Origin: Nitrospira lenta
GTDB lineage: Bacteria > Nitrospirota > Nitrospiria > Nitrospirales > Nitrospiraceae
Direction: 5' to 3'
Length of the DNA: 45,920 bases
NCBI GenBank assembly: GCA_945906715.1
Contig: CAMDRK010000001.1
Coordinates: forward strand, 1 to 45,920
Shown here: positions 3,918 to 42,412 of the stretch, piece after piece
Position numbering within the stretch: the first letter of the stretch is position 1
Layout: each line of letters opens with the position of its first letter
Position numbers and translations under genes: made by a program
Notes under the pieces: generated by a model
Databases searched by the model: none
The model's input: the letters and a program-made list of their open reading frames with translations, nothing else
What the model was told of the DNA's origin: nothing

Positions 3918-4015
3918 CGTGAGACGTAAAACGTGAAACGTGAAACGTAGGACTATCAAGTGCCCGCCTTCCCGAGAAATCTTTACATTTCACGTTTCAC
4001 CTTTTACCTTTCACG
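3918..4015. repeat. periodic-repeat hairpin, GTGAAAC heptamer type
   Basis: CGTGAGACGTAAAACGTGAAACGTGAAACGTAGG, a loop of about 30 nt, then CTTTACATTTCACGTTTCACCTTTTACCTTTCACG. The right arm contains the stop of CDS 4004-5263. Confidence 0.85.
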
Positions 4016-5477: not shown

Positions 5478-5603
5478 GCAGGCTGCTCAAAATGCTCCGA
5501 TAGCAAGGCCGCAGGCGAGTGAACACCGGAGGCGTACCCTCTGGGTACGCTGAGGATTTTCACGACCCGAGAACGAAGCTAGCGGACATTTTCAGCAGCC
5601 TGC
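5478..5603 (-). repeat. P125 element, inverted orientation, full copy
   Basis: GCAGGCTGCTCAAAATGCTCC...GTACCCTCTGGGTAC...GGACATTTTCAGCAGCCTGC. It contains the last 8 sense codons and the TAG of truD. Confidence 0.85.
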
Positions 5604-7401: not shown

Positions 7402-8252
7402 CCAGGCACGAGAAATCCTGGCCCGATCAAGCCCGTTCCTTTATCGGATATTGTCTGAGCGAACCTCTCTACCGGCTCTTTAGTCTCGTTCCCGACTGGG
7501 AAGTGGGACTTTCCAGACACGAGATTTCACAACTCAGCTACGCTCACAACCCTTTGGCCGGTCGACGAGCCGTTCATCTGAGCGATCTGCATCTCGATCG
7601 TTATCTGCCACGGCACGATCGCATCGTCGCCACCGTCGGCGAGCTCCGACCCGACTGGATCTTTATCACCGGCGACCTGCTCAACGTGCCGGAGGGTCTA
7701 CCCCATGTATTTCGATTTCTCGCCGGCTTGCGCACAATTGCGCCGGTCTTCGTTACGTTGGGCAACCATGACCATTACAGCGGCGTGCCGATCGATCGAT
7801 ATTGCGAACTCGCCGATCGCCACAAGATCACCCTCTTGATCAATCAGACTACCTTCATTTCCACAGACGGCGGCGAGATCGCCATTGTCGGCGTCGACGA
7901 TCCCTCATTGCATCGGGCCGACTTGCGCTGCCTCCCGCCTCGCGCAAAGGACAGATACGTCCTCTTGCTGGCCCATGCGCCGAACATCCTCGACCAGCTG
8001 GAAGACCACCACTCCGTCGATCTGATCCTCTGCGGGCACAGTCACGGAGGCCAGTGGCGCATACCGGGCGTACCGACGTTCTGGCTCCCGCCCGGATGCA
8101 ATGGGCGGATCGATGGACATCACGGAAAGCCTGGCCGCCAGCTCTATGTCAATCGTGGGCTCGGATGGTCGTTTCTTCCGCTGCGGTGGAATTGCACACC
8201 GGAAATCGCCTGCGTTGAATGGGTCAACGAACAGGCTCACCCAGCAGGCTGA
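7398..8252 (+). CDS. calcineurin-like metallophosphoesterase
   Basis: All four motifs are present: LSDLHLD, ITGDLLN, TLGNHD and CGHSHGGQ. Confidence 0.85.
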   Translation: MTRHEKSWPDQARSFIGYCLSEPLYRLFSLVPDWEVGLSRHEISQLSYAHNPLAGRRAVHLSDLHLDRYLPRHDRIVATVGELRPDWIFITGDLLNVPEGLPHVFRFLAGLRTIAPVFVTLGNHDHYSGVPIDRYCELADRHKITLLINQTTFISTDGGEIAIVGVDDPSLHRADLRCLPPRAKDRYVLLLAHAPNILDQLEDHHSVDLILCGHSHGGQWRIPGVPTFWLPPGCNGRIDGHHGKPGRQLYVNRGLGWSFLPLRWNCTPEIACVEWVNEQAHPAG

Positions 8253-8316
8253 AGGCCGAAGGCCGGGATTCGAAAGTTCGAACACTTCAGCCTTCGGTCT
8301 TCAGCCTACAGCCTGC
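8244..8316. repeat. periodic-repeat hairpin, CTGAAGG heptamer type
   Basis: GCAGGCTGAAGGCCGAAGGCCGGG, a loop, then TTCAGCCTTCGGTCTTCAGCCTACAGCCTGC. Lies between convergent genes. The TGA of the phosphoesterase is in the left arm. Confidence 0.85.
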
Positions 8317-8342
8317 TTCGCCTATTCGAAACGATTCCATAA

Positions 8343-11877: not shown

Positions 11878-11961
11878 TTGGTCTGTCTAGTTGGCCAGAT
11901 CGGGAACCTCACCAGAGAAACCAGACAGATCAGATAGACCAAATAGACAAGAGAGACAAGG
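11878..11961. repeat. periodic-repeat hairpin, nonamer family, right-arm dominant
   Basis: TTGGTCTGTCTAGTTGGCC ... ACCAGAGAAACCAGACAGATCAGATAGACCAAATAGACAAGAGAGACAAGG. Confidence 0.75.
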
Positions 11962-12619: not shown

Positions 12620-12964
12620 CTAGGCTTTCTCGCCAAGGGCTTCGAGGAGGCGGTCGATCTTTTGTTTCAGAACCGGCAAGTCTCGTTCGACCACATCCCA
12701 CACCAGTTGCAAATTGACTCCAAAATAATCGTGAATCAGTTTATCTCTCATGCCGGCGATGGGCTTCCACGCTATGTCAGAGTGAGCCTCTTTCAGCGTG
12801 ACGGATACGCGCTTGATTGCTTCCCCGATGATTTCGAGGTTACGCACAACCGCATCTTGGGTCTTTCGGTCGGAAAAGAAGCTCTCCTTTCCTGTTGCTG
12901 TATAGCTCATGATGTGCTGAATGGCGTCTCGAACGTGCAGGAGATAGATGCGGTCGTCCTTCAT
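12620..12964 (-). CDS. hepT: HepT-like (DUF86) toxin, HEPN RNase
   Basis: Carries the Rx4HxY motif in GMRDKLIHDYFGV. 114 aa. Its ATG overlaps the mntA stop by 4 nt. Confidence 0.85.
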   Translation of the reverse strand: MKDDRIYLLHVRDAIQHIMSYTATGKESFFSDRKTQDAVVRNLEIIGEAIKRVSVTLKEAHSDIAWKPIAGMRDKLIHDYFGVNLQLVWDVVERDLPVLKQKIDRLLEALGEKA

Positions 12965-13251
12965 AGAGGGACAGCTTCGGCATGGATTCGCTGCTCAAGG
13001 TATGGACTCAGGCCCTGATCGGTGAGGATATCGACTTTGCGCTGTAGTAATGTTTCGAGGTCTTGGCTGAGTTCGATGAGATCCAGCAAGCTACGCCCAT
13101 TATCCATCTCAACAAGGAAGTCGACATCGCTTTCCGGACGCGCCTCCCCTCTTGCCACAGACCCAAAGATCCGCACGTTGTGGGCTCCGTGTGCCTGCGC
13201 GAGGCGCAGTATTTCCGGCCGTTTGAATTTGAGCAAGTCTGCGATACCCAT
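12961..13251 (-). CDS. mntA: MntA-like nucleotidyltransferase antitoxin
   Basis: Carries FGSVARGEARPESDVDFLV (GSxxRG...SDxD). Start set at ATG 13251 (96 aa). The 254-aa track ORF runs upstream through non-coding repeat units. Confidence 0.85.
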   Translation of the reverse strand: MGIADLLKFKRPEILRLAQAHGAHNVRIFGSVARGEARPESDVDFLVEMDNGRSLLDLIELSQDLETLLQRKVDILTDQGLSPYLEQRIHAEAVPL

Positions 13252-13426: not shown

Positions 13427-13973
13427 TTTACTGCGCGCATCGAGCGATATACATGTTCCCTCCAAGCTTGCTCGTTTCTCTCTAGGGATGGGGGCTGACG
13501 GATCTTCCACTGCGCGCGTCCAACGAGGGCCTTCTCAGGCCGCGCGTTGCGCGAGCACAGAAGATCATCAGGCTCCATCCCCTCCTCTGTTCTGCGAGCA
13601 AGAAGGGCACCTGGCCACTCCTTCTCATCCCTCCAGGCTTGTTTACTGTACCTCTCTGGGAATGGCACTCGTAGTGGTCCAACTGCGCACGTCGAGCGAG
13701 CACATTCCGATCGTGCGCGCTCCACCTTCTACTTGGAGGGCGGGCTAGATGGTCTCCCACTGCGCGTGTCCAACGAGGGGTTTCTGAGGCCGCGCGTTGC
13801 ACGAGCACAGGAGACCGTCTAGCCTGACCTCTCATGCTCCCTCCAAGCTCGCTCGCTATTTTCTCAGGGATGGGGCCTGATTGATCTTCCACTGCGCGCG
13901 TCCAACGAGGGCCTTCCCAGGCCGCGCGTTGCGCGAGCACAGAAGATCATCAGGCCCCATCCCCTCCCCCTCT
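13427..13973 (+). repeat. tandem array of CACTGCGCGC-core palindromic elements (family PCORE)
   Basis: Three full A-type units lie at about 13452-13583, 13740-13825 and 13834-13973. Their core is CCACTGCGCG(C/T)GTCCAACGAGGG-N-GGCCGCGCGTTGC(G/A)CGAGCACAG. B-type variants lie at about 13427-13450 and 13660-13735 (ACTGCGC(G/A)C(A/G)TCGAGCGA). A shared leader CATG(T/C)TCCCTCCAAGCT(T/C)GCTCG is seen twice. Confidence 0.85.
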
Positions 13974-14473: not shown

Positions 14474-15229
14474 ATGCGTTTAACAATTCTCGGCTCCGGC
14501 ACAAACATACATCCCACGCGCGCAGCCTCTGGCTACCTCGTCCGCACTGACCATACAATCCTATTGGACTTTGGCCCTCGCACACTGGCGAATCTCCTAA
14601 AGACCGGCGTGAACCGGCATCGGATCACCCATATTCTTTTCTCCCATTACCACGCCGATCACTTTTCAGACTTCATCACCTATTTCTTCGATGCGATGAT
14701 CTTTACGAAATATCAAGGAGGGACAAGGCCGCCGCTGACCGTCATCGGCCCTCGCGGGACGAAGAAGTTCTTCCAGACCCTCTTCACTACCATGCCAGGC
14801 TTTACACAGGCGCCGTTTGCGGTTCATTTCAAAGAAGTCGCCGATCGGGCGTTTATGATCGGAAAGACAACCGTGATTCCCCGAACGGTGACCCACACAG
14901 AGAACCTCCATTGCCTGGGATATCGAATTGAGTATGGAGGGAAGGCGCTGGCCTATTCCGGCGACTCGCAATACTGCGACAGCCTCGTGCGCCTCTGTGG
15001 AGACGCCGATCTCGCAGTGCTGGACTGCTCTTTCCCGGCAAGTCGACCGAACCCGGTTCATCTGCATGCCGGTCAATGTGGGCAGGTGGCTAAAGAAGCT
15101 GGAATCGGCCAACTCGTCTTATCGCACTTCTATCCAGTTACAGACCGATACAATGTGCGGGAACAGGCAGGGGAACCGTTCGGGGGAAAGATTATCGTCG
15201 GGCGGGACTTGCTCACAATCAAACTCTAG
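14474..15229 (+). CDS. MBL-fold metallo-hydrolase (RNase Z/BN-like)
   Basis: HxHxDH motif in SHYHADHFSD. 251 aa, with later His and Asp ligands present. Confidence 0.85.
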   Translation: MRLTILGSGTNIHPTRAASGYLVRTDHTILLDFGPRTLANLLKTGVNRHRITHILFSHYHADHFSDFITYFFDAMIFTKYQGGTRPPLTVIGPRGTKKFFQTLFTTMPGFTQAPFAVHFKEVADRAFMIGKTTVIPRTVTHTENLHCLGYRIEYGGKALAYSGDSQYCDSLVRLCGDADLAVLDCSFPASRPNPVHLHAGQCGQVAKEAGIGQLVLSHFYPVTDRYNVREQAGEPFGGKIIVGRDLLTIKL

Positions 15230-15246
15230 CAAGATGCTGAAAAGGT
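15229..15246 (+). repeat. P125 left-terminus fragment
   Basis: GCAAGATGCTGAAAAGGT begins on the G of the MBL gene's TAG. It runs straight into a nonamer hairpin. Confidence 0.5.
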
Positions 15247-15248
15247 AG

Positions 15249-15330
15249 CCTGTCTGTCTTGTTCATTTGGTCTGTCCGGTCTGTCTGGTTTGTGGACCAG
15301 ATAGACGGAATAGACCAGACAGACTGGTCC
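15249..15330. repeat. periodic-repeat hairpin, nonamer family
   Basis: CCTGTCTGTCTTGTTCATTTGGTCTGTCCGGTCTGTCTGGTTTGTGG / ACCAGATAGACGGAATAGACCAGACAGACTGGTCC. Lies between convergent genes. Confidence 0.85.
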
Positions 15331-20842: not shown

Positions 20843-20972
20843 GGTCCCTCTCAAGCTCGCTCGTTATCCTCTTTTAGGGGTGGCCTGGGTTGGTCCCCAA
20901 CTGCGCGCATCGGACGAGCACAGTTTTATCGTGCGCGTTCTGCGAGCACGGGGGACCAACCAGGTTACCCCT
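20843..20972 (+). repeat. PCORE element, B-type, single copy
   Basis: Leader GGTCCCTCTCAAGCTCGCTCG, then AGGGGTGGCCTGGGTTGGTCCCC-AACTGCGCGCATCGGACGAGCACAG..GTGCGCGTTCTGCGAGCACG-GGGGACCAACCAGGTTACCCCT. Ends at the stop of the EcsC-like gene. Confidence 0.8.
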
Positions 20973-21975: not shown

Positions 21976-23028
21976 ATGAACATGCTTCGATCCCGCCAGA
22001 TCCAGCCACTGTTACTCGCGTGCGCCCTCGCCCTATTCCTCTGCTTAACCAGCGCCGGCTGTCAAAAGGAGAGCGAGGCGATTGTCTCGATTGCCCTGCA
22101 CCCGACGAACGCGAACATTCTCTATGTGGCGACGAACGATGCGGTCTATAAATCGCGCGATGAGGGCCAGCTGTGGGAGCGGTTCCCGAGTTTCAGCGCC
22201 AGGCGGGTGACGACGCTCGCGATCGATCCTGAATTTCCCGCCACGATCTATGCCGGCACCATGGCCGATGCCGTCTACAAGAGCCCGGATGGCGGGCAAC
22301 ATTGGCTTCCCCACAACGTCGGACTCAAAGAACACGTCTCCTTCATCAATCAATTCGTTTTCCACCCGACAGACCACGACCAGATCTACGCCGCCACGAC
22401 CGTCGGCGCCTTTTATACCAAAGACGGCGGGCGGGAATGGGAAGAACGCATGGCGGGGATGAAGGAAGTCCACATCGTGGTCTCCATCGCCATTCATCCC
22501 CGCGATCCTCGGGTTCTCTATGCAGGAACGACGGGAGGGGTCTACCGATCCGACAACGCGGCAATGGGATGGAAGAAAATCAACAATGGCCTGATTCCCG
22601 AACAGGAGCTAATGGGGGCGATGGCGCTGGGGGTCAATATGATCGTCTTCGATGTGGTCAACCCGGACATCCTCTATGCCGGAACTACGAAGGGCCTTTT
22701 CCGTACCGCGACGCGCGGGGAACAGTGGGAGCGAATCGGGCAATCGCTCCCCGATCTCTTCGTCAGCAGTATCCTCCTCGACCCGGCCCAGCCGAAAACC
22801 CTCTATATCGGTGGAACGGGGGGAGTCTGGAAAAGCCCTGACAGCGGGCAGACCTGGACCGCCATCAACAGCGGTTTAGGCTCACTGAATATTCGGGCCC
22901 TGGCGATGAGCCAGCGCGATCCGCGCCTCCTCTATGCCGGCACGAATGGCAGCGGCCTCTACCGCTCGACCGACTCCGGCGCAACCTGGACGCCCCTGCC
23001 GCTCAAGGCCGCGCCGGCTCAACCTTAG
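21976..23028 (+). CDS. BNR/Asp-box-like beta-propeller lipoprotein (Ycf48-like)
   Basis: Lipobox LTSAGC. Repeated blocks read LYAGT..G.Y(K/R)S.D.G..W. 350 aa. Confidence 0.75.
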   Translation: MNMLRSRQIQPLLLACALALFLCLTSAGCQKESEAIVSIALHPTNANILYVATNDAVYKSRDEGQLWERFPSFSARRVTTLAIDPEFPATIYAGTMADAVYKSPDGGQHWLPHNVGLKEHVSFINQFVFHPTDHDQIYAATTVGAFYTKDGGREWEERMAGMKEVHIVVSIAIHPRDPRVLYAGTTGGVYRSDNAAMGWKKINNGLIPEQELMGAMALGVNMIVFDVVNPDILYAGTTKGLFRTATRGEQWERIGQSLPDLFVSSILLDPAQPKTLYIGGTGGVWKSPDSGQTWTAINSGLGSLNIRALAMSQRDPRLLYAGTNGSGLYRSTDSGATWTPLPLKAAPAQP

Positions 23029-23048
23029 CCTCGACCTTAGCCTTTCAG
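23018..23048. repeat. single-arm fragment of CCTCAA/CCTTAG hexamer repeat
   Basis: CTCAACCTTAGCCTCGACCTTAGCCTTTCAG resembles the right arm of the 39222-39312 hairpin. I see no partner arm. It contains the TAG of CDS 21976-23028. Confidence 0.5.
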
Positions 23049-23527
23049 TAGCCTGACTTCGGCGCCGCCTCGCTAGGTTTATATCGACTGCTGTAGGCCA
23101 ACATCTGGTCCGACAAGGTCTTCCACTCCTCGGCCGTCATGAGATCCTTCATCCTGAAACGGAGCAAGAGAATCTTCGTTGCCGACTGCATTCGCCGATT
23201 GTTTGCGTCATCCAGGGCGTTGGTAAACTCTTCCGGGGTCGCCGCGTAGTTTGCGCTCAACTCATAGAGCCGACGATGCCCCGCGCGCTCCAGCTCGCGG
23301 CTAGCCTTCAACTCCGTGACAATCTCGCTCACGATCGATTTGACCTGCCCGGCCTTCTCCTGATCCTTGACTGTCCGATCGATCAAGGCGGCCATGTCCT
23401 GCTGACCCTTCTGCCAGTAGGCCTCCCCTTTCCCTTCGCCGCCCATCCCATGGTGACGGTGGGACGAACAACCGGCCAAGGTGAGCACGACAACGAGTCC
23501 GATAACATATCCCTGAATGCGCGTCAT
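23045..23527 (-). CDS. periplasmic lipoprotein, possibly Spy/CpxP-like
   Basis: Lipobox LTLAGC with a strong SD (AAAGAGGAGG) before ATG 23527. The body is helical and charged. The family call is weak. Confidence 0.6.
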   Translation of the reverse strand: MTRIQGYVIGLVVVLTLAGCSSHRHHGMGGEGKGEAYWQKGQQDMAALIDRTVKDQEKAGQVKSIVSEIVTELKASRELERAGHRRLYELSANYAATPEEFTNALDDANNRRMQSATKILLLRFRMKDLMTAEEWKTLSDQMLAYSSRYKPSEAAPKSGY

Positions 23528-23546
23528 AAAAAAACCTCCTCTTTAT

Positions 23547-23684
23547 GGTCTATCTGGACTATCCAGTCGGTCTGGTCTGTCTTGTTTATTTGGTTTGTTT
23601 GGCTTGTCTTGTTTATTTGGTTGAATCAGACCAACTCGATGAACTAACCAAACCAAATAGACCAGATCAACCAGACAAACCAGG
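23547..23684. repeat. periodic-repeat hairpin, nonamer family, with conserved central core
   Basis: Long GGTCT/GTTTG-type left arm (23547-23629), then core TTTGGTTGAATCAGACCAACTCGATGAACTAACC, then right arm AACCAAACCAAATAGACCAGATCAACCAGACAAACCAGG. Lies between divergent genes. Confidence 0.85.
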
Positions 23685-23741
23685 CTTGCCCAGGCCTGTT
23701 GTCACAACGGCGATGCTTCTCGTATCATCCTTCTAATTACT

Positions 23742-24086
23742 ATGTCTGAACTGACTGCTCCCCCAACCGATCATACCTTGGCGCTTCGAGAGGAATTTCG
23801 CCATCACCTCGAAATGTTCTATGCCCAGCTCAAGCTGGCGCCGCCCTATGAGAGCGTGGAGAAGGCCATTCGTTCCCTCACGACTTCGATCCACGCTCTG
23901 CCGCCGTTGGAACGAGCGAGCCTGGCCACCGATGCTACAGCGCGCTGGCAGCATTTTCGCCAGGCCTTTGAATCGTCCGGGCTCAGCAAGAAACATCGAG
24001 GCATCATCGCCGGTCTCGCCCGCAACCGGTCCAGCCTGAATCTTCCTGCCGAATATGATCTGTTCTTGAGTCTGTATCTCTCCTGA
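23742..24086 (+). CDS. hypothetical protein
   Basis: 114-aa ORF with reasonable composition and no recognisable motifs. Flanked on both sides by nonamer-repeat hairpins. Confidence 0.45.
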   Translation: MSELTAPPTDHTLALREEFRHHLEMFYAQLKLAPPYESVEKAIRSLTTSIHALPPLERASLATDATARWQHFRQAFESSGLSKKHRGIIAGLARNRSSLNLPAEYDLFLSLYLS

Positions 24087-24087
24087 A

Positions 24088-24198
24088 TTGGTCTGTCTGG
24101 TCTGTTCGGTCTATCTGGTCTATTCGGTCTGTCTGGTTGCATGAGACTAACCAGATCGACCAGACAGACAAGAAAGACCGAACAGACCAGACAGACCC
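24088..24198. repeat. periodic-repeat hairpin, nonamer family, most regular copy
   Basis: Left arm is five 9-nt units: GGTCTGTCT GGTCTGTTC GGTCTATCT GGTCTATTC GGTCTGTCT GGTT. The loop is GCATGAGACT. The right arm is AACC AGATCGACC AGACAGACA AGAAAGACC GAACAGACC AGACAGACC. Confidence 0.9.
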
Positions 24199-25060: not shown

Positions 25061-25792
25061 ATGGATTTAGCGAAGGTCGAGCGCGTCTATACCTCGTACG
25101 CCAAGATCTACGATCGAATTTTCGGAAAGGTGTTTCACGAAGGACGCCAGTCGGTGATTCGCAACCTGGACGTCCAGCCGGACGAAGAAATTCTCGAAGT
25201 GGGAGTCGGGACCGGGCTGGCCCTGCCGATGTACCCCCGCCATTGTCGGATCGTCGGGATCGACTTCTCAGAAGGGATGCTGGACCAAGCAAAGCAGAAA
25301 GCCGCAGAATACCAAATGGACCATGTGCAACTGCACCGAATGGATGCCGGCGCAATGGATTTCAAAGACGATAGTTTCGACACAGTTGTCGCAGCCTACG
25401 TCGTCACCGCTGTCCCCGACTATCGCAAGGTCGTCAGTGAAATGATCCGCGTCTGCCGACCAGGCGGACGGATCATTATGCTGAATCACTTCGCCAACGA
25501 CAATAAAATCATCGCCGCTATCGAAAAAGTGCTGTCCCCCATCACGAAGAACTTAGGGTGGCGCACAGACCTGGCCCTCCAGACCGTGCTGGAAGGAACG
25601 CCCCTGCACGTCGCTCGGAAACAGAATGTGAATCCGATGCGGCTCTGGGCTTTGGTGGAATGTGTGAACGGAAAGAACGGGAACGGGAAGACCCACATCA
25701 ACGGTGCGAAAAACGGAAACGGCTCCGCAGCCTACGCACATATCAACGGCACGCGTCTCTCGGAACAGGCCAGCGGACAGGCGCTGGGCTAG
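25061..25792 (+). CDS. class I SAM-dependent methyltransferase, phospholipid N-methyltransferase (PmtA)-like, with an Asn/Gly-rich tail
   Basis: Motif I is ILEVGVGTGLAL. The N-terminus YAKIYDRIFGKVFHEGR resembles PmtA-type enzymes (from memory). The C-terminal tail is NGKNGNGKTHINGAKNGNGSAAYAHING. Confidence 0.8.
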   Translation: MDLAKVERVYTSYAKIYDRIFGKVFHEGRQSVIRNLDVQPDEEILEVGVGTGLALPMYPRHCRIVGIDFSEGMLDQAKQKAAEYQMDHVQLHRMDAGAMDFKDDSFDTVVAAYVVTAVPDYRKVVSEMIRVCRPGGRIIMLNHFANDNKIIAAIEKVLSPITKNLGWRTDLALQTVLEGTPLHVARKQNVNPMRLWALVECVNGKNGNGKTHINGAKNGNGSAAYAHINGTRLSEQASGQALG

Positions 25793-25916
25793 CAGGCCGT
25801 TGAAAAAGCCCGCCAGCTTCGTTCTCGCATCGTTCAGACCCTCAACGTACCCCAAGGGTACGCCTCGGCCCTTCACTCGCTGCGGCCTCGCTGAACAGTC
25901 TTTTTGAACAGCCTGC
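25792..25916 (+). repeat. P125 element, full copy
   Basis: GCAGGCCGTTGAAAAAGCCCGCCAGCTTCGTTCTCGCATCG...GTACCCCAAGGGTAC...CTTTTTGAACAGCCTGC. Starts on the G of the methyltransferase TAG and is followed directly by a nonamer hairpin. Confidence 0.85.
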
Positions 25917-25999
25917 TTACTTGGTTCATTTGGTTTGTTTAGTTCGTCGAGCTGGCCCGATTCAACCAAATAAACAAGACAAACCAAAGAGACTAAATA
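25917..25999. repeat. periodic-repeat hairpin, nonamer family, core inverted relative to 23547-23684
   Basis: TTACTTGGTTCATTTGGTTTGTTTAGTTCGTCGAGCTGGCCCGATTCAACCAAATAAACAAGACAAACCAAAGAGAC. It directly abuts a P125 copy. Confidence 0.8.
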
Positions 26000-26008
26000 A
26001 CAATCTCT

Positions 26009-27721: not shown

Positions 27722-27820
27722 GTCCAAAAGTCGAATGTCATCAAGTCGAAAGTCTTCCGGAATTCTCACGACTTGACGACTTTCTGACTTGAAGGCTTGA
27801 CGACCTGATGACGTTACGAC
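27722..27820. repeat. periodic-repeat hairpin, GACTTGAC octamer type
   Basis: The left arm is GTCCAAAAGTCGAATGTCATCAAGTCGAAAGTC. The right arm is GACTTGAC GACTTTCT GACTTGAA GGCTTGAC GACCTGAT GACGTTAC GAC. Confidence 0.75.
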
Positions 27821-27857
27821 TATCCGACCGATTAATTTACAAAGGAGAAGATCGGAC

Positions 27858-29033
27858 ATGCCTGGTTTTCCGATAGAAGTTGCCACACGAATCAAGACCC
27901 TGCCTCCCTATCTGTTTGCCGCCATCGACAAGATGAAGCAGGCCGCGATTGCCAAGGGCATCGACATCATCAATCTTGGCATCGGTGACCCGGATTTGCC
28001 GACACCGACGCCGATCATTGAAAGCCTGGCGATAGCAGCCAAGGATCCCAAGCACCATCAATATCCCTCGTATGAGGGCATGCTGTCCTTCAGAAAAGCC
28101 GTTGCAGACTGGTACAAGCGGCGGTTCAACGTGACACTCAACCCGGCCGATGAAGTGCTCACCCTCATCGGCTCGAAGGAAGGCATCGGACATATTCCAC
28201 TCGCATTCGTCGATCCGGGCGATATCGTGCTCGTCCCGAGTCCCGGCTATCCGGTCTATCCTGTTGGAACCAGTTTCGCCGGTGGCGTCGCACACCTCAT
28301 GCCGCTCACGAAGCAGAATGGCTTCTTGCCGGACTTGAAGGCCATCCCTAAGGACGTGGCGAAAAAAGCGAAGCTGATGTTTCTGAACTCCCCAAACAAC
28401 CCGACGTCGGTCATCATGAGCAAGGACTACTTCAAGCGCGTTGTGGACTTTGCCGGGGAAAACCAGATCATCGTCTGCCACGACGCGGCCTATTCAGAGA
28501 TTTTCTACGACGGCAAACCCCCGGCGAGCTTCATGGAAGTCGATGGCGCAAAAGATGTAGGCATCGAGTTCCACTCGCTCTCGAAGACCTACAACATGAC
28601 TGGCTGGCGCATCGGATTTGCCGTCGGAAACACACAGGTTCTCGCAGGACTGGGCAAGGTGAAGAGCAACCTCGACTCTGGCTGTTTCCAGGCCATTCAG
28701 GAAGCCGGCATCACCGCGCTCAATCTGGATGACTCTGTGACTGACGGCTTGCGCAAGATCTATCAGGAGCGGCGCGACACTCTGGTCCCAGGCCTCAAAC
28801 AGCTTGGGCTTGAGGTCGATCCGCCTCCGGCGGCGTTCTATATCTGGGTCACGGTGCCGAAGGGGTACACCTCCACTTCGTTCACAGCTCACTTGCTGGA
28901 GAAAGCCGGAATCGTCACGACACCAGGCAATGGTTTCGGCGCGCCGGGCGAAGGCTATATCAGGATGACCGTCTGCACGTCGAAAGAGCGATTGGCGGAG
29001 GCGGTGGAACGGATTAAGAAGGTGGGGTTCTGA
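27858..29033 (+). CDS. dapL: LL-diaminopimelate aminotransferase-like class I aminotransferase
   Basis: Contains RIKTLPPYLFAAIDKMK, NSPNNPT and the PLP-Lys context SLSKTYNMTGWRIG. dapA, dapB and lysA are in the same window. Confidence 0.75.
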   Translation: MPGFPIEVATRIKTLPPYLFAAIDKMKQAAIAKGIDIINLGIGDPDLPTPTPIIESLAIAAKDPKHHQYPSYEGMLSFRKAVADWYKRRFNVTLNPADEVLTLIGSKEGIGHIPLAFVDPGDIVLVPSPGYPVYPVGTSFAGGVAHLMPLTKQNGFLPDLKAIPKDVAKKAKLMFLNSPNNPTSVIMSKDYFKRVVDFAGENQIIVCHDAAYSEIFYDGKPPASFMEVDGAKDVGIEFHSLSKTYNMTGWRIGFAVGNTQVLAGLGKVKSNLDSGCFQAIQEAGITALNLDDSVTDGLRKIYQERRDTLVPGLKQLGLEVDPPPAAFYIWVTVPKGYTSTSFTAHLLEKAGIVTTPGNGFGAPGEGYIRMTVCTSKERLAEAVERIKKVGF

Positions 29034-29035
29034 AA

Positions 29036-29118
29036 CTCGTGAGGCGTGAGGGGAATCGACTCGGAACCTCCGTCTTCTTAACTGTATCACCTAACGCCTC
29101 ACGCCTAACCCCTCACGG
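29036..29118. repeat. periodic-repeat hairpin, GTGAGGC heptamer type
   Basis: CTCGTGAGGCGTGAGGGG ... CACCTAACGCCTCACGCCTAACCCCTCACGG. Lies between dapL and folK. Confidence 0.8.
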
Positions 29119-29124
29119 TATATT

Positions 29125-29676
29125 ATGGAGACTGTCTTCATCGGATTCGGTTCGAATGTCAGCGATCGAGTCGATTTCTGCGACCGTGCGGTGACGTTGT
29201 TGAGCCTGCTGCCGCACTCCCAACTCTCGGGGGTGTCGTTGCTCTATGAAACCGAGCCGGTGAACGATTTTGCCCAGCCTGGCGATGGCTGGTTCTTGAA
29301 CGGGGTCGTACAGCTTGAGACGGATGTCACGCCGAAGAGCCTCTTGGCTATACTCCGTGAGATCGAGTGCTCGCTCGGCCGGGATGAGGAGAACCGATCA
29401 GGCCCCAGAACCATCGATTTGGATATCTTGTTCTACGGCCAACGGATCATCGACGAACCGGATCTCGTGGTGCCGCATCCTCGCATGCACCGCCGCCGGT
29501 TCGTCCTAATGCCGTTGAGCGAACTCGATCCGCTGTTCGTCCATCCATTACTCCAACGCACCATCAGCCAATTGCTCGCCGAAGCCGGGAAGCAGCCGGA
29601 GGTTCGCCTCCTGTTTCCCCAACCCTCGACCCGCTACGGGTCTCGCCCTGCTTGCAGCCCGCCTCCAGGCTCATGA
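29125..29676 (+). CDS. folK: 2-amino-4-hydroxy-6-hydroxymethyldihydropteridine diphosphokinase
   Basis: Contains FIGFGSN...LYETEPV...RTIDLDILFYG...VPHPRMHRRRFVLMPL. The stop overlaps the panC ATG (ATGA). Confidence 0.9.
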   Translation: METVFIGFGSNVSDRVDFCDRAVTLLSLLPHSQLSGVSLLYETEPVNDFAQPGDGWFLNGVVQLETDVTPKSLLAILREIECSLGRDEENRSGPRTIDLDILFYGQRIIDEPDLVVPHPRMHRRRFVLMPLSELDPLFVHPLLQRTISQLLAEAGKQPEVRLLFPQPSTRYGSRPACSPPPGS

Positions 29677-30596
29677 AAATTATCCGCACCCCACGATCTA
29701 TGACTGCATGGAGCGAAGGATTACGCCGGGAAGGGGTGATCATCGGATTCGTGCCCACGATGGGCGCGCTGCATGACGGCCATCGTTCCCTCATTCGAGC
29801 CGCACGATTACAATGCGATGCGCTCGTTGTGAGTATCTTCGTGAATCCGACGCAGTTTGCGCCGACCGAAGACCTGACGAAGTACCCGCGGCCCATCGCG
29901 AAGGATCGCGCGCTCTGCCGGGAGGAAGGGGTGGATGTCTGTTTTGAACCGACATCCCAGGCCATGTATCCTGAGGGTTTCCAAACGACCGTGACGGTGC
30001 CGGCGCTCGCGCGCCGATGGGAGGGGGCGGCCCGGCCTCATCATTTTGCCGGCGTCGCCACGGTGGTGACGAAACTCTTCGGCATGGTACAGCCACAACG
30101 TGCCCTGTTTGGCCAGAAAGACTACCAGCAGACAGCGCTGGTTCGGCAACTTGTGAACGATCTCAATCTCGGCGTGGCGATTCTGGTACGTCCGACCGTC
30201 AGAGAGCGCGATGGGTTGGCTATGAGTTCGCGTAATGTCTATCTCAGCCCGGACGAACGTCGGATGGCTCCCTTGCTTTTTCAATCGCTCCAAGCCGGCA
30301 GACAGATGATCGAGGGTGGGGAAAGCGACGTGGCTGCAATCGAACGGATCATGCGACAGACTATCGAACGGGAGCCCACCATTCATGTCGAGTACCTGGC
30401 CGTCTGCGATCCGGACAGTCTGGAGCCTCTGCCCGTCGTCGCAGCTCGTGCGGTACTCTTAGGCGCAATCCGGCTCGGACCGGTCCGCTTGATCGATAAT
30501 CTGCTGGTGAAGATGCCGGGCAGGAAGGTGCCTAATCAGGGGTTCAGGCTGAAGGCTGAAGGTGGTTTCGACGATCTTGGGTTCAAACAAAAATGA
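29673..30596 (+). CDS. panC: pantoate--beta-alanine ligase
   Basis: Starts MKIIRT and contains FVPTMGALHDGH and later RLIDN. ATG 29673 is preferred over TTG 29652. The C-terminal tail runs about 31 aa past RLIDN into a repeat hairpin. Confidence 0.9.
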   Translation: MKIIRTPRSMTAWSEGLRREGVIIGFVPTMGALHDGHRSLIRAARLQCDALVVSIFVNPTQFAPTEDLTKYPRPIAKDRALCREEGVDVCFEPTSQAMYPEGFQTTVTVPALARRWEGAARPHHFAGVATVVTKLFGMVQPQRALFGQKDYQQTALVRQLVNDLNLGVAILVRPTVRERDGLAMSSRNVYLSPDERRMAPLLFQSLQAGRQMIEGGESDVAAIERIMRQTIEREPTIHVEYLAVCDPDSLEPLPVVAARAVLLGAIRLGPVRLIDNLLVKMPGRKVPNQGFRLKAEGGFDDLGFKQK

Positions 30597-30650
30597 ATCC
30601 TCGTTGGGCAAGAAGCCCAACCCCTAAAAGCCTTCAGCCTATCTACCTGA
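30544..30650. repeat. periodic-repeat hairpin, CTGAAGG heptamer type
   Basis: TCAGGCTGAAGGCTGAAGGTGG ... AAAAGCCTTCAGCCTATCTACCTGA. The left arm is translated as the panC tail (FRLKAEGG). Confidence 0.8.
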
Positions 30651-30672
30651 GTAGTTTCGTGGGAAAAGCGCG

Positions 30673-32982: not shown

Positions 32983-33195
32983 GGGTGACCGTCCAGATCG
33001 TGCCGCCAGCTAAGATTCGACAGAGTTGTTGGGTGTTGCAATGAGACAAGCACGCGGCTAAAGATTACGTAACCACTCGCGAAAGGTCAAGACCGCAAAA
33101 CGACTAGCCCGTATTACTCATGAAGGCGAATCGCGAAAGCGTGCCAACGGGCCAGGCCAGTGGCGCGAGGCTAGTGGCTAGAGGGAAGAGCCATG

Positions 33196-35862
33196 CTATT
33201 GACTGGAGGTCTTTGCCCCTAGCCTCTGGCCCCATGCCTCTCGCCCATGAACGACGATCTCGCCTCGCTCTGCATCCAAGCTGATCCAATCGCCTTCCTT
33301 CAGCCTGGCAGTAATGCCGGCCACATTCGCAACGGCCGGCAATCCGTACTCGCGAGCAATAATCGCTCCGTGCGACAATGTCCCGCCCATCTCGGCGACC
33401 AACCCCGCTGCCACGCCAAACAACGGCGCCATACCTGGATCGATGACCGAGACCACGAGAATGTCTCCGCGGCAGACTCGGCTCCAATCCTCCATCGATC
33501 GAACGAAGCGAACCGGCCCCACGACCTGCCCCCCACTGATGGGAATACCGTGCAGTATCCCCTCCGAAGCCACAACGGACGATGTGTACGTACCTCTGAC
33601 CATCTCGCGCCAATCCTGAATCGTGTCTGGAACACTGACCGTGGCGTTGCGGTCTCGCTCGGCTCTGCGAACCTGAATCATCCCTTTCCAATCGCTCGCT
33701 CTTCCCGCTAGCAAGTCGGCACGCGCTTCGATCGTAAGATAGAAAACATCCTCCTGCGACGAAAGCCGCCCCTGTTCGACCAGCCACTCGCCCAAGCGAA
33801 GCAGAAGGCTTCGTGTTGCCGCCGAGTAGTACATCAAATGATGCCGGTTCGCTTCCCGCAGGGCAAAGAACCGGCAGAGCCGTCGATACCACCAGGAAAA
33901 GATGGCCCACCGGTGGAATCGCCATCCGAATCTCGTGCGAATCTCTGCAAGCGCTCGTTCTCGCACCATTGTTTGACGTTGAAGAATGTCCGCCGGAGCG
34001 GCGTTGGTCGGAGCCAGAATCTGCGTTCGTAATACCGACAACAACAGTTCGGGCTTGTCTGCGAACCGAGGTGACATGGGGTCCGACTCACCGACCCCTC
34101 GGTGACCATAGTCGTCGAGATACCGGTTAAAGGCACGGAGCACGTCGGTTCCTTCGAGCTTGCGACAAGCCGCAACCGGATTCCACCCCTCTTCGGTAAA
34201 CAGCGACATCACTGACGGGTCACGCCGAACCATCTCGGCCATTTCCGCCAGGCGGACAATCTGTTGCGCGCTGATCACCACCGCTTGACCCTGGAGCGCC
34301 CCGTTCAGCAGAGATCTCCAATCTCCGCCTAGCCAGCGGGGCAGTACACCGCCTAACGCCTGCAAGCAATGCGCAACCCCTCCTGCGGTGGCAAATGTCA
34401 GTTCCCGTTCATCGAGCCATTGCGCCAGGGCATCGAGGCGTGAAGCGATGTCTTCGGCTGAGAGAGTCCGAATACAATCAGGGCGATGTTCTGCAGCCAT
34501 CGCTTTCATCTCCGCGAACCAGGCCGGTCCACAACGCACAGCTTTTCTCATCTCGGCCATCATCGCAACCCCGGCGCGGACCACCGCAAACCACCCAAGC
34601 GGGCGGACCTCCGGCACCTTTGCAAGGATTTCTCCTCCCATCTGCTCCGTCATTAAAGAGGGATCTCCCCGCAGTTGTGCAATGAGAGAGTAAAACAACG
34701 TCATATTGATATAGGGACGTCCCTTGAACGTACGGACCGACGTGATCCCTTCCGGAATCTGGCATCCCATACGCCGATAGGGTGCAACAATATATCGCTC
34801 CATGAACTGCTCGAGAAACGACAGGCCGAGCGGGCTCGGCAACTCCGGCAACGTCTCCTTGAAGTTGGCGCGCGACCATTCGCAATCGTCATTGGTCAGT
34901 GGTCTAGGCCCGGCTAGGCCGGAGATGGCCCGTGCTTGAAGCAGCCACAGGCCACCCTCATCGTAGAGCCATTCGACATCCACAGGATGGCCGAATGATT
35001 TTTCAATCTGCTTGGCCGCACGGGCCAGGGCGAGCAGCTGATCGTCCGACAACGTGGCACGACCCACCGCCTCGTCCGATAGCGGCACTTCACAAAGACC
35101 CTGGCCTGTCACCCTCAAGGCCTGAGTTTGCCTGGCAATCGTCCGTTGACTGACCCGGGAGGGCTGACCGTTCTCTGCGATCTCAACCACATACTGGTCC
35201 GGCGTCGCGCTCCCATCCACGAGGGCTGCCGCGAGCCCCGCCACCGCATTGACCATCACCTGGGTCTCTCTGCCTGTAAGTGGATGGACGGAATAGGCCA
35301 CGCCGGCGGCGCTCGCCTCTAGCAGCGGTTGAATCACGATTGCCATGGCGGGAGGTGTTTCGTTCAACCCCGATGTTGCATGGTAATTCAGAACCCGCTC
35401 ATCCCAGATCGACAGCCACAGATCCTTGACTGCCGAACCTATCTCCTCCAGCGAAACGCCGAGGCGCGTACGGTAGACTCCGGCAAAACTCGCATGAACT
35501 CCATCCTCGTTCGTCGCCGACGACCGCACCGCCCACAGCCCATGCGGCGCCAGATCCAGCCGGTGAACCTGTTCGATGATCTGAGCCGTCAACTCATCGA
35601 TCGCGCAATCCCGAATGATGGTGTGGCAACGGGAGAGTATCCGTTGGCGCTCAGATCCGGAGGAATGCAGAGCTGCCTGCCACTCCTTCGTTGGAGAAAA
35701 TCCCTGCGTCCGAAGCGCGTGCTCATAGGCCTCCGTCGTGATGCAGAGTCCGGCTGGAACGGAAAATCCTCCTGCGAGCAGACGAGCTAAGCCCAGGGCT
35801 TTCCCACCGACAAGGGATGGTTGCGTGCAGGCGGCCAAGGGAAGAAGGAGAGGACGGTCCAT
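33196..35862 (-). CDS. PEP-utilising-enzyme family phosphotransferase (ATP-grasp N-domain + C-terminal swivel His domain, no TIM-barrel domain)
   Basis: The N-terminus LVGGKALGLARLLAGGFSVPAGLCITTEAY is PPDK_N-like. The C-terminus GGTLSHGAIIAREYGLPAV is a phospho-His swivel motif. 888 aa. Confidence 0.85.
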   Translation of the reverse strand: MDRPLLLPLAACTQPSLVGGKALGLARLLAGGFSVPAGLCITTEAYEHALRTQGFSPTKEWQAALHSSGSERQRILSRCHTIIRDCAIDELTAQIIEQVHRLDLAPHGLWAVRSSATNEDGVHASFAGVYRTRLGVSLEEIGSAVKDLWLSIWDERVLNYHATSGLNETPPAMAIVIQPLLEASAAGVAYSVHPLTGRETQVMVNAVAGLAAALVDGSATPDQYVVEIAENGQPSRVSQRTIARQTQALRVTGQGLCEVPLSDEAVGRATLSDDQLLALARAAKQIEKSFGHPVDVEWLYDEGGLWLLQARAISGLAGPRPLTNDDCEWSRANFKETLPELPSPLGLSFLEQFMERYIVAPYRRMGCQIPEGITSVRTFKGRPYINMTLFYSLIAQLRGDPSLMTEQMGGEILAKVPEVRPLGWFAVVRAGVAMMAEMRKAVRCGPAWFAEMKAMAAEHRPDCIRTLSAEDIASRLDALAQWLDERELTFATAGGVAHCLQALGGVLPRWLGGDWRSLLNGALQGQAVVISAQQIVRLAEMAEMVRRDPSVMSLFTEEGWNPVAACRKLEGTDVLRAFNRYLDDYGHRGVGESDPMSPRFADKPELLLSVLRTQILAPTNAAPADILQRQTMVRERALAEIRTRFGWRFHRWAIFSWWYRRLCRFFALREANRHHLMYYSAATRSLLLRLGEWLVEQGRLSSQEDVFYLTIEARADLLAGRASDWKGMIQVRRAERDRNATVSVPDTIQDWREMVRGTYTSSVVASEGILHGIPISGGQVVGPVRFVRSMEDWSRVCRGDILVVSVIDPGMAPLFGVAAGLVAEMGGTLSHGAIIAREYGLPAVANVAGITARLKEGDWISLDAERGEIVVHGREAWGQRLGAKTSSQ

Positions 35863-37220: not shown

Positions 37221-37347
37221 GGGCTCGCTGTGTACGTCATCTTAGGATGGTCCGGTGAGTCCCCCACTGCGCGCGTCCAACGAGGGTCTTCTGAGACCGC
37301 GCGTTGCGCGAGCACAGGGGACTCACCGGACCATCCCCCTTCTAAGG
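37221..37347 (+). repeat. PCORE element, A-type, single copy
   Basis: CTTAGGATGGTCCGGTGAGTCCCC-CACTGCGCGCGTCCAACGAGGGTCTTCTGAGACCGCGCGTTGCGCGAGCACAG-GGGACTCACCGGACCATCCCCCTTCTAAGG. The stop of the SLT gene lies in the right outer stem. Confidence 0.85.
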
Positions 37348-38506: not shown

Positions 38507-39223
38507 GTGCTAGACTGCGCGACTATGCGTGCGCTGGTCCTCCTCAACGATCGCATCACCCACTGCACTGCCTGTTCACGGCTCGTCACCTATCGGGAGA
38601 CGATTGCCAGAGAGAAGCGGAAGCAGTATGAGGACTGGACCTATTGGGGACGTCCGGTCCCTGGATTCGGGGACTCCCATGCCCGCCTCTACGTGCTCGG
38701 ACTCGCGCCTGCTGCCCACGGTGCCAACCGAACTGGGCGGGTATTTACAGGCGATCGCAGCGGGGACTGGCTCTATGACGCCTTACACCGATTTGGCTTC
38801 GCCAACCAACCAGGCTCACACCACCGGGATGACGGGCTGAAGCTATCGGACTGTTATATTGGCGCCACGATCCGTTGCGCGCCGCCAGACAACAAACCGG
38901 CCCCTGAAGAATTCAAGGCCTGCCGCCCCTATCTGAGCGAAGAGCTCCGGTCATTACGGAGGATTCGAGTGGTTGTGGCGCTGGGCAAGATTGCGTTCGA
39001 TCATTACTTGAAAGTCTGCCGTGATGAGGGATTGCAACTTCCCTCACCGCTCCCGAAATTTTCCCATGGAACCGTGCAAGTTCTTCCCTGGGGCATTACT
39101 CTGATCGGCTCATACCATCCCAGCCAACAAAATACCTTCACCGGACTATTGACCAGGCCGATGTTTCACCACATCTTCGCAACCGCTCGCCAACGACTTG
39201 CCGAGGCGGAGCGAGTGAAGTAG
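38507..39223 (+). CDS. uracil-DNA glycosylase superfamily protein, family 4/5 (UDGb-like motif)
   Basis: Contains CTACSRL, GLAPAAHGANRTGRVFTGD and GSYHPSQQN. The start is GTG 38507 or ATG 38525. Confidence 0.85.
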   Translation: MLDCATMRALVLLNDRITHCTACSRLVTYRETIAREKRKQYEDWTYWGRPVPGFGDSHARLYVLGLAPAAHGANRTGRVFTGDRSGDWLYDALHRFGFANQPGSHHRDDGLKLSDCYIGATIRCAPPDNKPAPEEFKACRPYLSEELRSLRRIRVVVALGKIAFDHYLKVCRDEGLQLPSPLPKFSHGTVQVLPWGITLIGSYHPSQQNTFTGLLTRPMFHHIFATARQRLAEAERVK

Positions 39224-39312
39224 GTTGAGGCCGAGGTCAAGGTCAAGGTCAAGATTGAGCGAAGATCTAATGTTCTCATCTTAGCCTCAACCTTAGCCTG
39301 AACCTCAACCTT
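39222..39312. repeat. periodic-repeat hairpin, GGTCAA/CCTCAA hexamer type
   Basis: AGGTTGAGGCCGAGGTCAAGGTCAAGGTCAAGATTGAG, a loop, then CTCATCTTAGCCTCAACCTTAGCCTGAACCTCAACCTT. Lies between convergent UDG and tal. Confidence 0.85.
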
Positions 39313-42288: not shown

Positions 42289-42412
42289 GCAGGATGCTGA
42301 AAAAGTCCGCCAGCATCGTTCTCGCATCGCTCAGAGGCTCAACGTACCGAAGCGTACGCCTCGCCTCTTCGCTCGCTGCGGCCTTGCTGGACGGCCATTT
42401 TGAGCATCCTGC
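42289..42412 (+). repeat. P125 element, full copy
   Basis: GCAGGATGCTGAAAAAGTCCGCCAGCATCGTTCTCGCATCG...GTACCGAAGCGTAC...GGCCATTTTGAGCATCCTGC. Lies between dapA and dapB. Confidence 0.85.

Follow-up and report, generated by a model that had tools for sequence, protein, structure and literature searches.

Hairpins with periodic arms form several dispersed, strain-variable repeat families between Nitrospira genes

Here we describe a class of long intergenic hairpins in a 45,920-nt stretch of Nitrospira lenta DNA (contig CAMDRK010000001.1, positions 1 to 45,920), referred to as the window. Each arm of such a periodic-arm hairpin is a tandem array of short units that is complementary to the array in the other arm. 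The hairpins represent several families of small non-coding dispersed Nitrospira repeats, and unit (6-9 nt), loop and end motifs are specific to each family. Their copies are scattered over unrelated intergenic sites, and a site that carries a copy in one strain can be empty or taken by another element in a close relative. Our preferred reading, to which we assign a probability of roughly 0.55, is that they are dispersed hairpin modules with slippage-prone arms, similar to repetitive extragenic palindromes (REP) and MITEs (miniature transposable elements with inverted repeats), which act in RNA as terminator, insulator or 3'-end stabiliser, a role that we infer from position alone.

The focal copy takes up the convergent spacer that runs from the stop codon at 24086 (+) to that at 24207 (-):

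24090-24197, no strand assigned: focal periodic-arm hairpin of the 9-mer family, units GGTCTGTCT / AGACAGACC, loop GCATGAGACT

A loop of 10 nt separates its two 49-nt arms (24090-24138 and 24149-24197), which are 86% complementary and also pair when offset by 9 and 18 nt. Tandem Repeats Finder calls period-9/18 arrays of 5.4 and 4.4 copies, which agrees with the original prediction, made from the letters of the window, that tandem nonamers pair here with complementary nonamers. The minimum free energy of the RNA is -74.7 kcal/mol compared to -31.2 +/- 3.9 for shuffles (z = -11.2), that of the DNA -42.2 kcal/mol (z = -11.5); the locus thus stands out from shuffled controls in both folds. Rfam gave no match at gathering thresholds. 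At E <= 0.5 the sole match was the focal hairpin to a microRNA precursor model, with 33.5 bits against a cut-off of 70. A microRNA precursor was rejected as its identity, the score being far below the cut-off and typical of a generic hairpin match.

The window is a piece of Nitrospira chromosome with a G+C content of ~57%. Its aminotransferase (27858-29033) is 97% identical to a protein of an uncultured Nitrospira metagenome-assembled genome (MAG) and ~90% identical to many others. The gene map was taken from the gene calls of a public metagenome contig that is 99.9% identical. Hairpins were searched using a purpose-built detector for a periodic array with a complementary partner at most 150 nt away, with dinucleotide shuffles as control, and the tandem arrays in the arms were called by Tandem Repeats Finder. 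The detector returned 13 matches in the window compared to 0.07 per shuffle, so the predicted class of periodic-arm hairpins is real. One match (2798-2950) lies inside a transposase gene and is probably spurious. In total the window contains 14 hairpins and one single arm, the arms being tandem arrays of 6-9(-14)-nt units. A strict ungapped inverted-repeat scan recovered 8 hairpins, an earlier strict periodicity detector just 6 arrays and 0 pairs in the window. A sliding RNAfold scan was rejected as a detector since it reports long imperfect stems in any sequence (199 'hairpins'). The periodic hairpins of the window recur in independent assemblies from other samples, the focal one being identical in three. 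They are therefore no assembly artefact.

The focal spacer was surveyed in 80 metagenome loci with an upstream gene product 85-96% identical at the protein level, and 79 strains were classified. Family III in the following list is another repeat of the window, ~125 nt long with 20-nt inverted ends (GCAGGATGCTGAAAAAG...CTTTTTGAGCATCCTGC).

Focal spacer with family III element: 28 of 79 strains
Focal spacer with 9-mer hairpin homologous to the focal copy: 25 of 79 strains
Focal spacer with conventional inverted-repeat element, CTAG on both sides: 8 of 79 strains
Focal spacer empty: 8 of 79 strains
Focal spacer in another state: 10 of 79 strains

At an empty site a single nucleotide separates the two stop codons, which make up the palindrome TCCTGA.TCAGGA. 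Comparing filled and empty focal sites, no target-site duplication of the periodic hairpin was found: the empty site reads tcctga-T-TCAGGACGG and the filled one tcctaa-element-TCAGGACGG, with no bases duplicated. The arms are terminal inverted repeats, yet the outermost ends of the 9-mer element (TCTTGTTCATTTGG ... CCAGGCTTGTC) are non-complementary. The states are mixed on the tree of the flanking genes, with the nearest neighbour in the same state in 42 of 79 cases. In more distant Nitrospira species the spacer is 6-60 nt long and carries no element. Altogether ~90% of the strains have some hairpin-forming element at this junction, of at least five unrelated kinds. A conventional MITE-like element of ~190 nt with CTAG on both sides and the ends CCCGGATTATTCATGAATGCC...GGTATTCATGAATAGTCCGGG occurs in L101, L105, L108, L109, L120 and L134; its palindromic end ATTCATGAAT provides stop codons both ways.

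Presence also varies at the divergent spacer ~400 nt away (site 23546), where 20 of the 73 strains examined have a periodic hairpin, mostly of the 9-mer family, independent of the state of the focal site. Strains with a periodic hairpin have a spacer of 162-328 nt here, compared to 76-96 nt in most of those that lack one. Moreover, elements are replaced. The 88-nt convergent spacer 8255-8342 (GGCCGAA/GGCTGAA) is swapped whole in a 99.9% identical contig (L084 13229-13349) for an unrelated 121-nt spacer with a GAAGTTC-heptamer hairpin. The limits of this replacement fall within a few bases of both stop codons. Two strains with 99% identical flanks have an unrelated 73 nt as the spacer between TAL and UDG, including the arm motif of the hairpin at 33154. 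The gap between aminotransferase and HPPK, compared in 26 genomes, holds a periodic hairpin in 10, family II (a further hairpin repeat) within a long stem in 4 more, and no significant structure in ~8; different species have different heptamers with a common GTGA core. That a hairpin is kept downstream of the aminotransferase in nearly all Nitrospira was rejected as overstated, periodic ones being present in only 10/26 genomes.

These observations bear on a rival explanation, namely that the hairpins are selfish or neutral MITE/REP-like parasites with no RNA role, and that post-stop and convergent sites are simply where selection spares insertions. Empty sites in close relatives, hairpins decayed or absent in many orthologous gaps and the fast turnover and replacement all speak for it. 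The ~90% of strains with a hairpin former at the focal junction, drawn from at least five unrelated element types, speak against it. We regard this explanation as unlikely, though as a serious contender.

That the loci are independent solutions with unrelated motifs is not supported, as each motif type turned out to be a dispersed family with common loop and end sequences. When inverted, the hexamer hairpin of the window matches a copy nested in a family III frame at the focal site of L135, with agreement at 72 of 81 positions and the loop included. The focal-site element of L098 and the GGCTGAA hairpin at 8243 have the loop GAATCGAA(A/G)TTCGAACAC in common. At the focal site of L128, a family III copy has an interior that matches the GTGAAAC hairpin at 3918, and the 14-mer hairpin at 33154 matches a focal-site copy in L137. 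Copies of the 9-mer family have the motifs GTTCATYTGG, GGTTGAAT and CCAGGCTTG in common. The elements are REP/MITE-like in being insertion-polymorphic, inverting and nested in or adjacent to another repeat. They form several families, however, and are not decayed copies of a single MITE.

The same comparisons argue against a purely local origin, by which each hairpin would have grown in place from a small terminator stem through slippage and concerted evolution, without mobility and with convergent motifs. Copies at non-orthologous loci have loops and flanks in common, beyond the units. One family is independently present or absent at two sites ~400 nt apart, copies are nested in family III frames, and in one pair the identity of the element is slightly above that of the flanks (97% vs 92%). 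In favour of local growth, the heptamers of the aminotransferase-HPPK gap differ by species yet have the GTGA core in common, and GGCTGAA arms resemble an amplified family III terminus, GCAGGCTGAAGG.

Copies of family III lie at 1510-1636, 5478-5603, 25792-25916 and 42289-42412, with a fragment at 15229-15245, and usually start at or directly past a stop codon. In other strains the interior of family III is exchanged for periodic hairpins or family II. About half of the window hairpins touch a family III end or fragment, and GCAGG is located at most 35 nt upstream of 4 of the 14 hairpins compared to 0.55 expected (p = 0.002). Based on these contacts, family III may be a modular carrier of periodic hairpins, with the interior hairpin evolving by slippage. 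A conserved core, ...CCACTGCGCGCGTCCAACGAGG..., characterises the hairpin repeat family II (13485-13581, 13741-13826, 13867-13963, 20876-20972, 37245-37336). This core is found at the apex of long locus-specific stems in L002, L004, L015, L024, L025, L132 and L136.

Unequal arm lengths, which had suggested gain and loss of units by slippage, are common among the hairpins, and the comparison of orthologous regions revealed whole-unit changes directly. The TAL-UDG spacer (window 39222-39311) is an allelic series among strains that encode an identical TAL protein. Two strains have 2 units (58 nt), four strains have 5 units (94 nt), and the window type has one unit more (100 nt). The lengths differ by whole hexamers, the step from 58 to 94 nt adding 3 hexamers to each arm. 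The loop with a one-unit stem is already present in L085, the flanks of which are 83% identical. This series, from one unit (L085) via 2 to 5-6 units with the loop unchanged, again fits local growth; weighed against the dispersal described above we consider a local origin improbable. Among the 23 sequenced variants of the focal 9-mer hairpin, length ranges from 74 to 147 nt, and every one forms a fold with 21-52 bp. Between the GT-rich and the AC-rich half, length shows hardly any correlation (r = 0.19), which agrees with slippage that acts on each arm independently.

Moreover, whole elements are found in both orientations. With one of the two inverted, the focal elements of L103 and L163 are the same at 114 of 117 positions. 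L103 and L114 have flanking genes that are 98.7% identical and elements inverted relative to each other. In some strains the loop is inverted.

Inversions of whole elements imply an interaction of the arms as DNA and thereby favour a DNA-level element, i.e. cruciforms, arrays bound by a protein (nucleoid protein, gyrase or recombinase, as for bacterial interspersed mosaic elements, BIMEs) or G-quadruplex formers. The single-stranded DNA fold is likewise highly significant (z = -11.5), and short tandem units could bind an oligomeric protein. However, units and periods vary by family (6, 7, 8, 9 and 14 nt) such that no single sequence-specific binder fits, and the placement tight to stop codons suggests a link to transcripts. 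G-quadruplex repeats were rejected: most units, such as GGTCTGTCT, GTGAAAC and GGCTGAA, have no GGG tract and are excluded as quadruplex formers, AGGTCA and GACTTGAC have none either, and GGG occurs only in GTGAGGG(G). A DNA-level function appears highly improbable to us.

The other members of the window, none with a strand assigned, are the following:

882-1005: 9-mer family hairpin (CTGGTTNNT), ~9 units in the 5' arm and ~4 units in the 3' arm
1771-1823: short GGCTGAA-type hairpin, weak member, ~2 units per arm
3918-4015: heptamer hairpin GTGAAAC / GTTTCAC in a co-directional (-) gap
8243-8317: heptamer hairpin GGCTGAA/GGCCGAA in a convergent spacer
11878-11960: 9-mer family hairpin with very unequal arms (~2 vs 5.5 units) in a co-directional (-) gap
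15249-15327: 9-mer family hairpin between convergent genes, with the family III left-end fragment 15229-15245 ahead of it
23018-23043: single arm of the hexamer/12-mer family (CTCAACCTTAGC x 2.2) in a 16-nt convergent spacer
23546-23684: hairpin of the 9-mer family within a divergent spacer; gene 23045-23527 starts 19 nt away
25917-26000: T-rich variant of the 9-mer family hairpin between convergent genes, abutting the complete family III copy 25792-25916
27728-27829: octamer hairpin (GACTTGAC type) in a co-directional (+) gap, 3' arm longer (6.8 units)
29036-29117: heptamer hairpin GTGAGGC / GCCTCAC, filling the 91-nt gap from aminotransferase stop to HPPK start
30532-30654: long-looped heptamer hairpin with GGCTGAA units at a convergent junction
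33154-33245: period-7/14 hairpin (AGGCCAGTGGCGAG / GCCCCTAGCCTCTGGCC) in a co-directional (-) gap, overlapping the stop at 33196
39222-39311: hexamer hairpin AGGTCA/AGGTTG vs CTCAAC/CTTAGC in the convergent UDG-TAL spacer

Most of the loci named beforehand are thus paired tandem arrays. This applies to all hairpins of the list except 1771-1823 and 11878-11960, which fit weakly (few units or very unequal arms), and 33154-33245, an extra member that had been missed and whose arm motif is seen at other loci in L090 and L137. The arm at 23018-23043 lies alone, as stated before, and overlaps the end of gene 21976-23028. The octamer motif of 27728-27829 is present in the orthologous gap of L001, L006, L013 and L019. 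Further contacts with family III are a left-end fragment, CTAGCAGGAGGCTAAAA, preceding hairpin 882-1005, a copy beside hairpin 1771-1823, which lies in a convergent spacer, a right end, GAGCATCCTGC, after hairpin 3918-4015, and the family III-derived flanks CTAGCAGGA and CACTCGCT of hairpin 39222-39311.

With respect to the genes, which are core genes syntenic across the genus, the hairpins show a clear arrangement. Seven of the ten convergent junctions have a full periodic hairpin and one has a single arm; at one the genes overlap, and one has a non-periodic structured spacer. Five hairpins are located in co-directional gaps. Two of ten divergent junctions are occupied (882 and 23546), and the gene map confirms that both copies lie between divergent starts as had been noticed; for 882-1005 these are the gpsA start at 854 (-) and an open reading frame (ORF) start at 1144 (+). 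The hairpins mostly begin 0-20 nt past a stop codon, within a range from an 11-nt overlap to 42 nt (27728). The overlap is that of hairpin 3918-4015 with the stop at 4004, the next start being 19 nt from its end. Hairpin 29036-29117 starts 2 nt past the aminotransferase stop and ends 7 nt short of the HPPK ATG. The 5' arm of 30532-30654 falls in the C-terminal tail of the panC ORF as called, a part that is non-conserved.

A promoter-like site (TTGTCA-18-TATCAT at 23699-23728) is found directly downstream of hairpin 23546-23684 and upstream of gene 23742-24086. It is kept in strains with as well as without the neighbouring hairpin insertion. The called C-termini of UDG (38525-39223) and PanC (29673-30596) extend into hairpin arms. 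UDG has 232 aa in the window compared to 246 aa where strains have another spacer, and the last ~20 residues of PanC are non-conserved in relatives.

Neither a scan for consensus terminators nor reading of the flanks revealed a T-tract after any of the periodic hairpins. Between 20 and 40 kb of the window, 14 consensus terminators (hairpin plus T) were found compared to 17 expected, i.e. no enrichment. Most of the other 3' gaps contain families II and III. The lack of canonical terminators in this region is a further argument against mere parasites, as something must end these transcripts; that copies extend into UDG and PanC and change their C-termini agrees with parasites. The earlier view that a simple terminator role is inadequate is corroborated by the missing T-tract, the copies at divergent starts and the ends located 7-19 nt before the next start codon.

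How such modules might work and evolve can be outlined as follows. The arms behave like microsatellites that gain and lose units, largely independently per arm. As the arms are periodic they can pair again in a shifted register, and the hairpin survives insertions and deletions. Complementarity may be kept by occasional templating from arm to arm or by compensatory change, and flips of the whole element probably occur via recombination between the inverted arms. New copies appear without visible target duplication at stop-stop junctions, beside promoters and inside family III. Given the position past stop codons and the filling of most convergent spacers, transcripts from either side would end in an RNA hairpin of 20-50 bp without U-tract. 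By analogy to REP and Correia-type elements, this hairpin is most likely a bidirectional terminator or insulator, either factor-independent or processed by RNase, as well as a barrier to 3' exonucleases. The lack of canonical terminators in the region and the hairpin formers that ~90% of strains have at the focal junction also speak for a role in RNA, as does the precedent of the Xanthomonas repeats treated below, where starts and stops of transcripts tend to fall (PMC4692102). Individual copies are dispensable.

Several results weigh against such a role in RNA. The focal site is empty in 8 strains, and a significant hairpin is retained by only ~14/26 genomes in the aminotransferase-HPPK gap. 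Two copies are flanked by divergent starts, and those in co-directional gaps stop 7-19 nt short of the next start codon, where a strong terminator would silence the downstream gene. The folding energy (G-U vs A-C) shows no strand asymmetry favouring the transcribed strand in the 23 focal variants. The co-directional gap downstream of the aminotransferase has no such asymmetry either, and the upstream gap a weak bias in the wrong direction. Selection at the RNA level is hence not demonstrated, and the missing asymmetry is in line with selfish as well as with DNA-level elements. No target duplication was found, nor, in the window, a matching transposase or REP-associated tyrosine transposase (RAYT), and the sole insertion sequence (IS) of the window has unrelated ends. 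Finally, that the focal junction is so often occupied could be due to a hot spot for insertion (palindrome TCCTGA.TCAGGA) and not to selection.

The IS in question, the only one of the window, has a transposase gene of the IS630 family (DDE_3, 1979-3013) and the inverted ends GTAAAGCCTCATG. It was rejected as parent of the hairpins since these ends are unlike every hairpin family. Among the gene calls of the window there is neither a RAYT (Y1 HUH transposase) gene nor an integrase. Integron attC sites were ruled out, as the genes are core and syntenic, the junctions are mostly convergent, no integrase is called and the ends have no common core sites. CRISPR arrays were rejected on context and sequence. 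A scan of viral contigs for the 9-mer array gave at least 120 single matches, of the order estimated for chance. Among the viral matches listed, two contigs (L184 and L282, IMG/VR) have a periodic hairpin of the 9-mer family, and since these are only two, there is no evidence of phage carriage. The regions 12620-13251 and 14474-15229 of the window encode a toxin-antitoxin pair of the HepT/MNT type (HepT-like and NTP_transf_2) and a metallo-beta-lactamase-fold protein that matches the Pfam family Anti-Pycsar_Apyc1.

Beyond the window, the detector density per 100 kb is 7.6 in other Nitrospira loci and 4.2 in loci of Thermodesulfovibrionia, Desulfobacterota and others, compared to 28 in the window and ~1 in shuffles of these related loci. 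Period 7 is commonest in the hairpins of the related loci, and the window has periods of 6-9(-14). Clear periodic-arm hairpins are present in L032, L035, L036, L038, L040, L060 and L080, which are MAGs of Thermodesulfovibrionia-like bacteria, Desulfobacteraceae and Syntrophobacteraceae. They mostly have 7-8-nt units and a G-rich 5' arm. The architecture is therefore not restricted to Nitrospira.

In all 13 window matches the 5' arm contains more G than C, and the same is true for 31 of the 34 matches with a score of at least 24, other phyla included (p = 8e-7). The side of the G-rich arm is a real property because a palindrome reads alike on both strands. Such polarity in 31/34 confident cases across phyla suggests a constraint beyond mere tolerance and is thus another point against selfish elements. 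A tentative idea, which we consider rather unlikely, goes further and sees a distinct self-propagating hairpin module: it would enter at palindrome centres without target duplication, have its arms renewed by slippage and templating, and give rise to new motif families. The palindrome centres may be abutting stops such as TCCTGA.TCAGGA and the interiors of other hairpin repeats. The G-rich 5' polarity in Nitrospirota, Desulfobacterota and Xanthomonas may then be a common mechanistic constraint in making or using the hairpins, and not common descent.

Returning to dispersed modules that act in RNA: if the hairpins end or insulate transcripts, the gene-boundary signals of Nitrospira, a key nitrifier genus without mapped terminators, would largely derive from fast-evolving exchangeable repeats and not from fixed terminators. 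The over-represented intergenic heptamer repeats of many bacteria, an old and unexplained observation, are now tied to hairpin-forming dispersed elements. The natural allelic series (empty, 1, 2, 5 and 6 units, inverted) makes slippage, palindrome correction and hairpin inversion directly measurable. Moreover, the loci are highly variable strain markers and likely break points in short-read assembly of Nitrospira metagenomes.

In the literature no description of periodic-arm hairpins in Nitrospira was found, and we compared them to known systems. They resemble intrinsic terminators, including the 'I-shaped' type without U-tract, by a stable hairpin directly past the stop codon that is symmetric at convergent junctions. 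Unlike these they have no T-tract, their stems are 3-5 times longer, and some are located upstream of genes or before a start codon.

REP, BIME and REPIN (REP doublet) sequences of Enterobacteria and Pseudomonas are proposed to stabilise mRNA 3' ends and to act as terminators (PMC3116915, PMC3733652). Like these, the Nitrospira elements are short dispersed imperfect palindromes at the 3' ends of genes, polymorphic between strains, and are found past stop codons, in gaps that are convergent or lie within operons but seldom between divergent genes. However, REP stems are 20-40 nt long, non-periodic, RAYT-linked and carry a GTAG or CGTC tag, whereas the Nitrospira arms are tandem arrays of 20-60 nt. 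None of these tags is common to the ends of the window hairpins.

Transcripts of Correia elements (Neisseria miniature insertion sequences, NEMIS) fold into long hairpins that are terminators and RNase III substrates. The similarity lies in small non-autonomous repeats at gene ends with presence/absence polymorphism. In Correia elements, by contrast, the terminal inverted repeats are defined, the target duplication is TA and the arms are non-periodic; for the Nitrospira hairpins neither a duplication, comparing filled and empty sites, nor, in the window, a parent IS was found.

Intergenic tandem heptamers of several motif families, with small repeats nested within, reportedly occur in cyanobacteria as short tandemly repeated repetitive (STRR) sequences, in work attributed to Mazel et al. 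1990 and Elhai et al. 2008. The structured intergenic regions of cyanobacteria are likewise said there to vary strongly between close relatives. STRR sequences are mainly direct arrays with other motifs in another taxon, whereas the Nitrospira arrays are paired as hairpins. Paired G-rich heptamer arrays are few in Nostoc PCC 7120 (PMC4692102). The TAACTGA repeats of marine Beggiatoaceae are abundant intergenic tandem heptamers shared across phyla (MacGregor 2015, PMC4679880). They are direct repeats just upstream of start codons with one inverted pair among 170 sets (PMC4679880), and hence, unlike the Nitrospira elements, no hairpins.

The closest counterpart is found in Xanthomonas campestris and X. 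axonopodis, where tandem GGGAATC heptamer arrays form 70-75 opposite-strand pairs in 'convergent orientation' per genome (Rehm et al. 2015, PMC4692102). These pairs are mostly intergenic at a mean distance of 28 nt from the stop of the upstream ORF, which they sometimes overlap, their length differs between the species, and transcripts often start or stop there (PMC4692102). They were read as G-quadruplex formers, and no association with mobile elements was reported (PMC4692102). The Nitrospira hairpins agree in pairing a tandem array with its complement close by on the other strand, in period 7 for most hairpins of the related loci, in the G-rich arm lying 5' on each strand and in the intergenic position near or overlapping the upstream stop codon. 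The claim of the original prediction that no such class had been described is hence too strong, as the Xanthomonas pairs share polarity and stop-codon position (PMC4692102). The two differ in that Xanthomonas has one motif with G-tracts, whereas Nitrospira has many motifs and periods, mostly without a G3 tract. Loops, family structure, insertion polymorphism, inversion and nesting are features of Nitrospira that are undescribed for the Xanthomonas pairs. Taken together, the Nitrospira elements are a multi-family, insertion-polymorphic and slippage-prone form of an architecture already reported in Xanthomonas.

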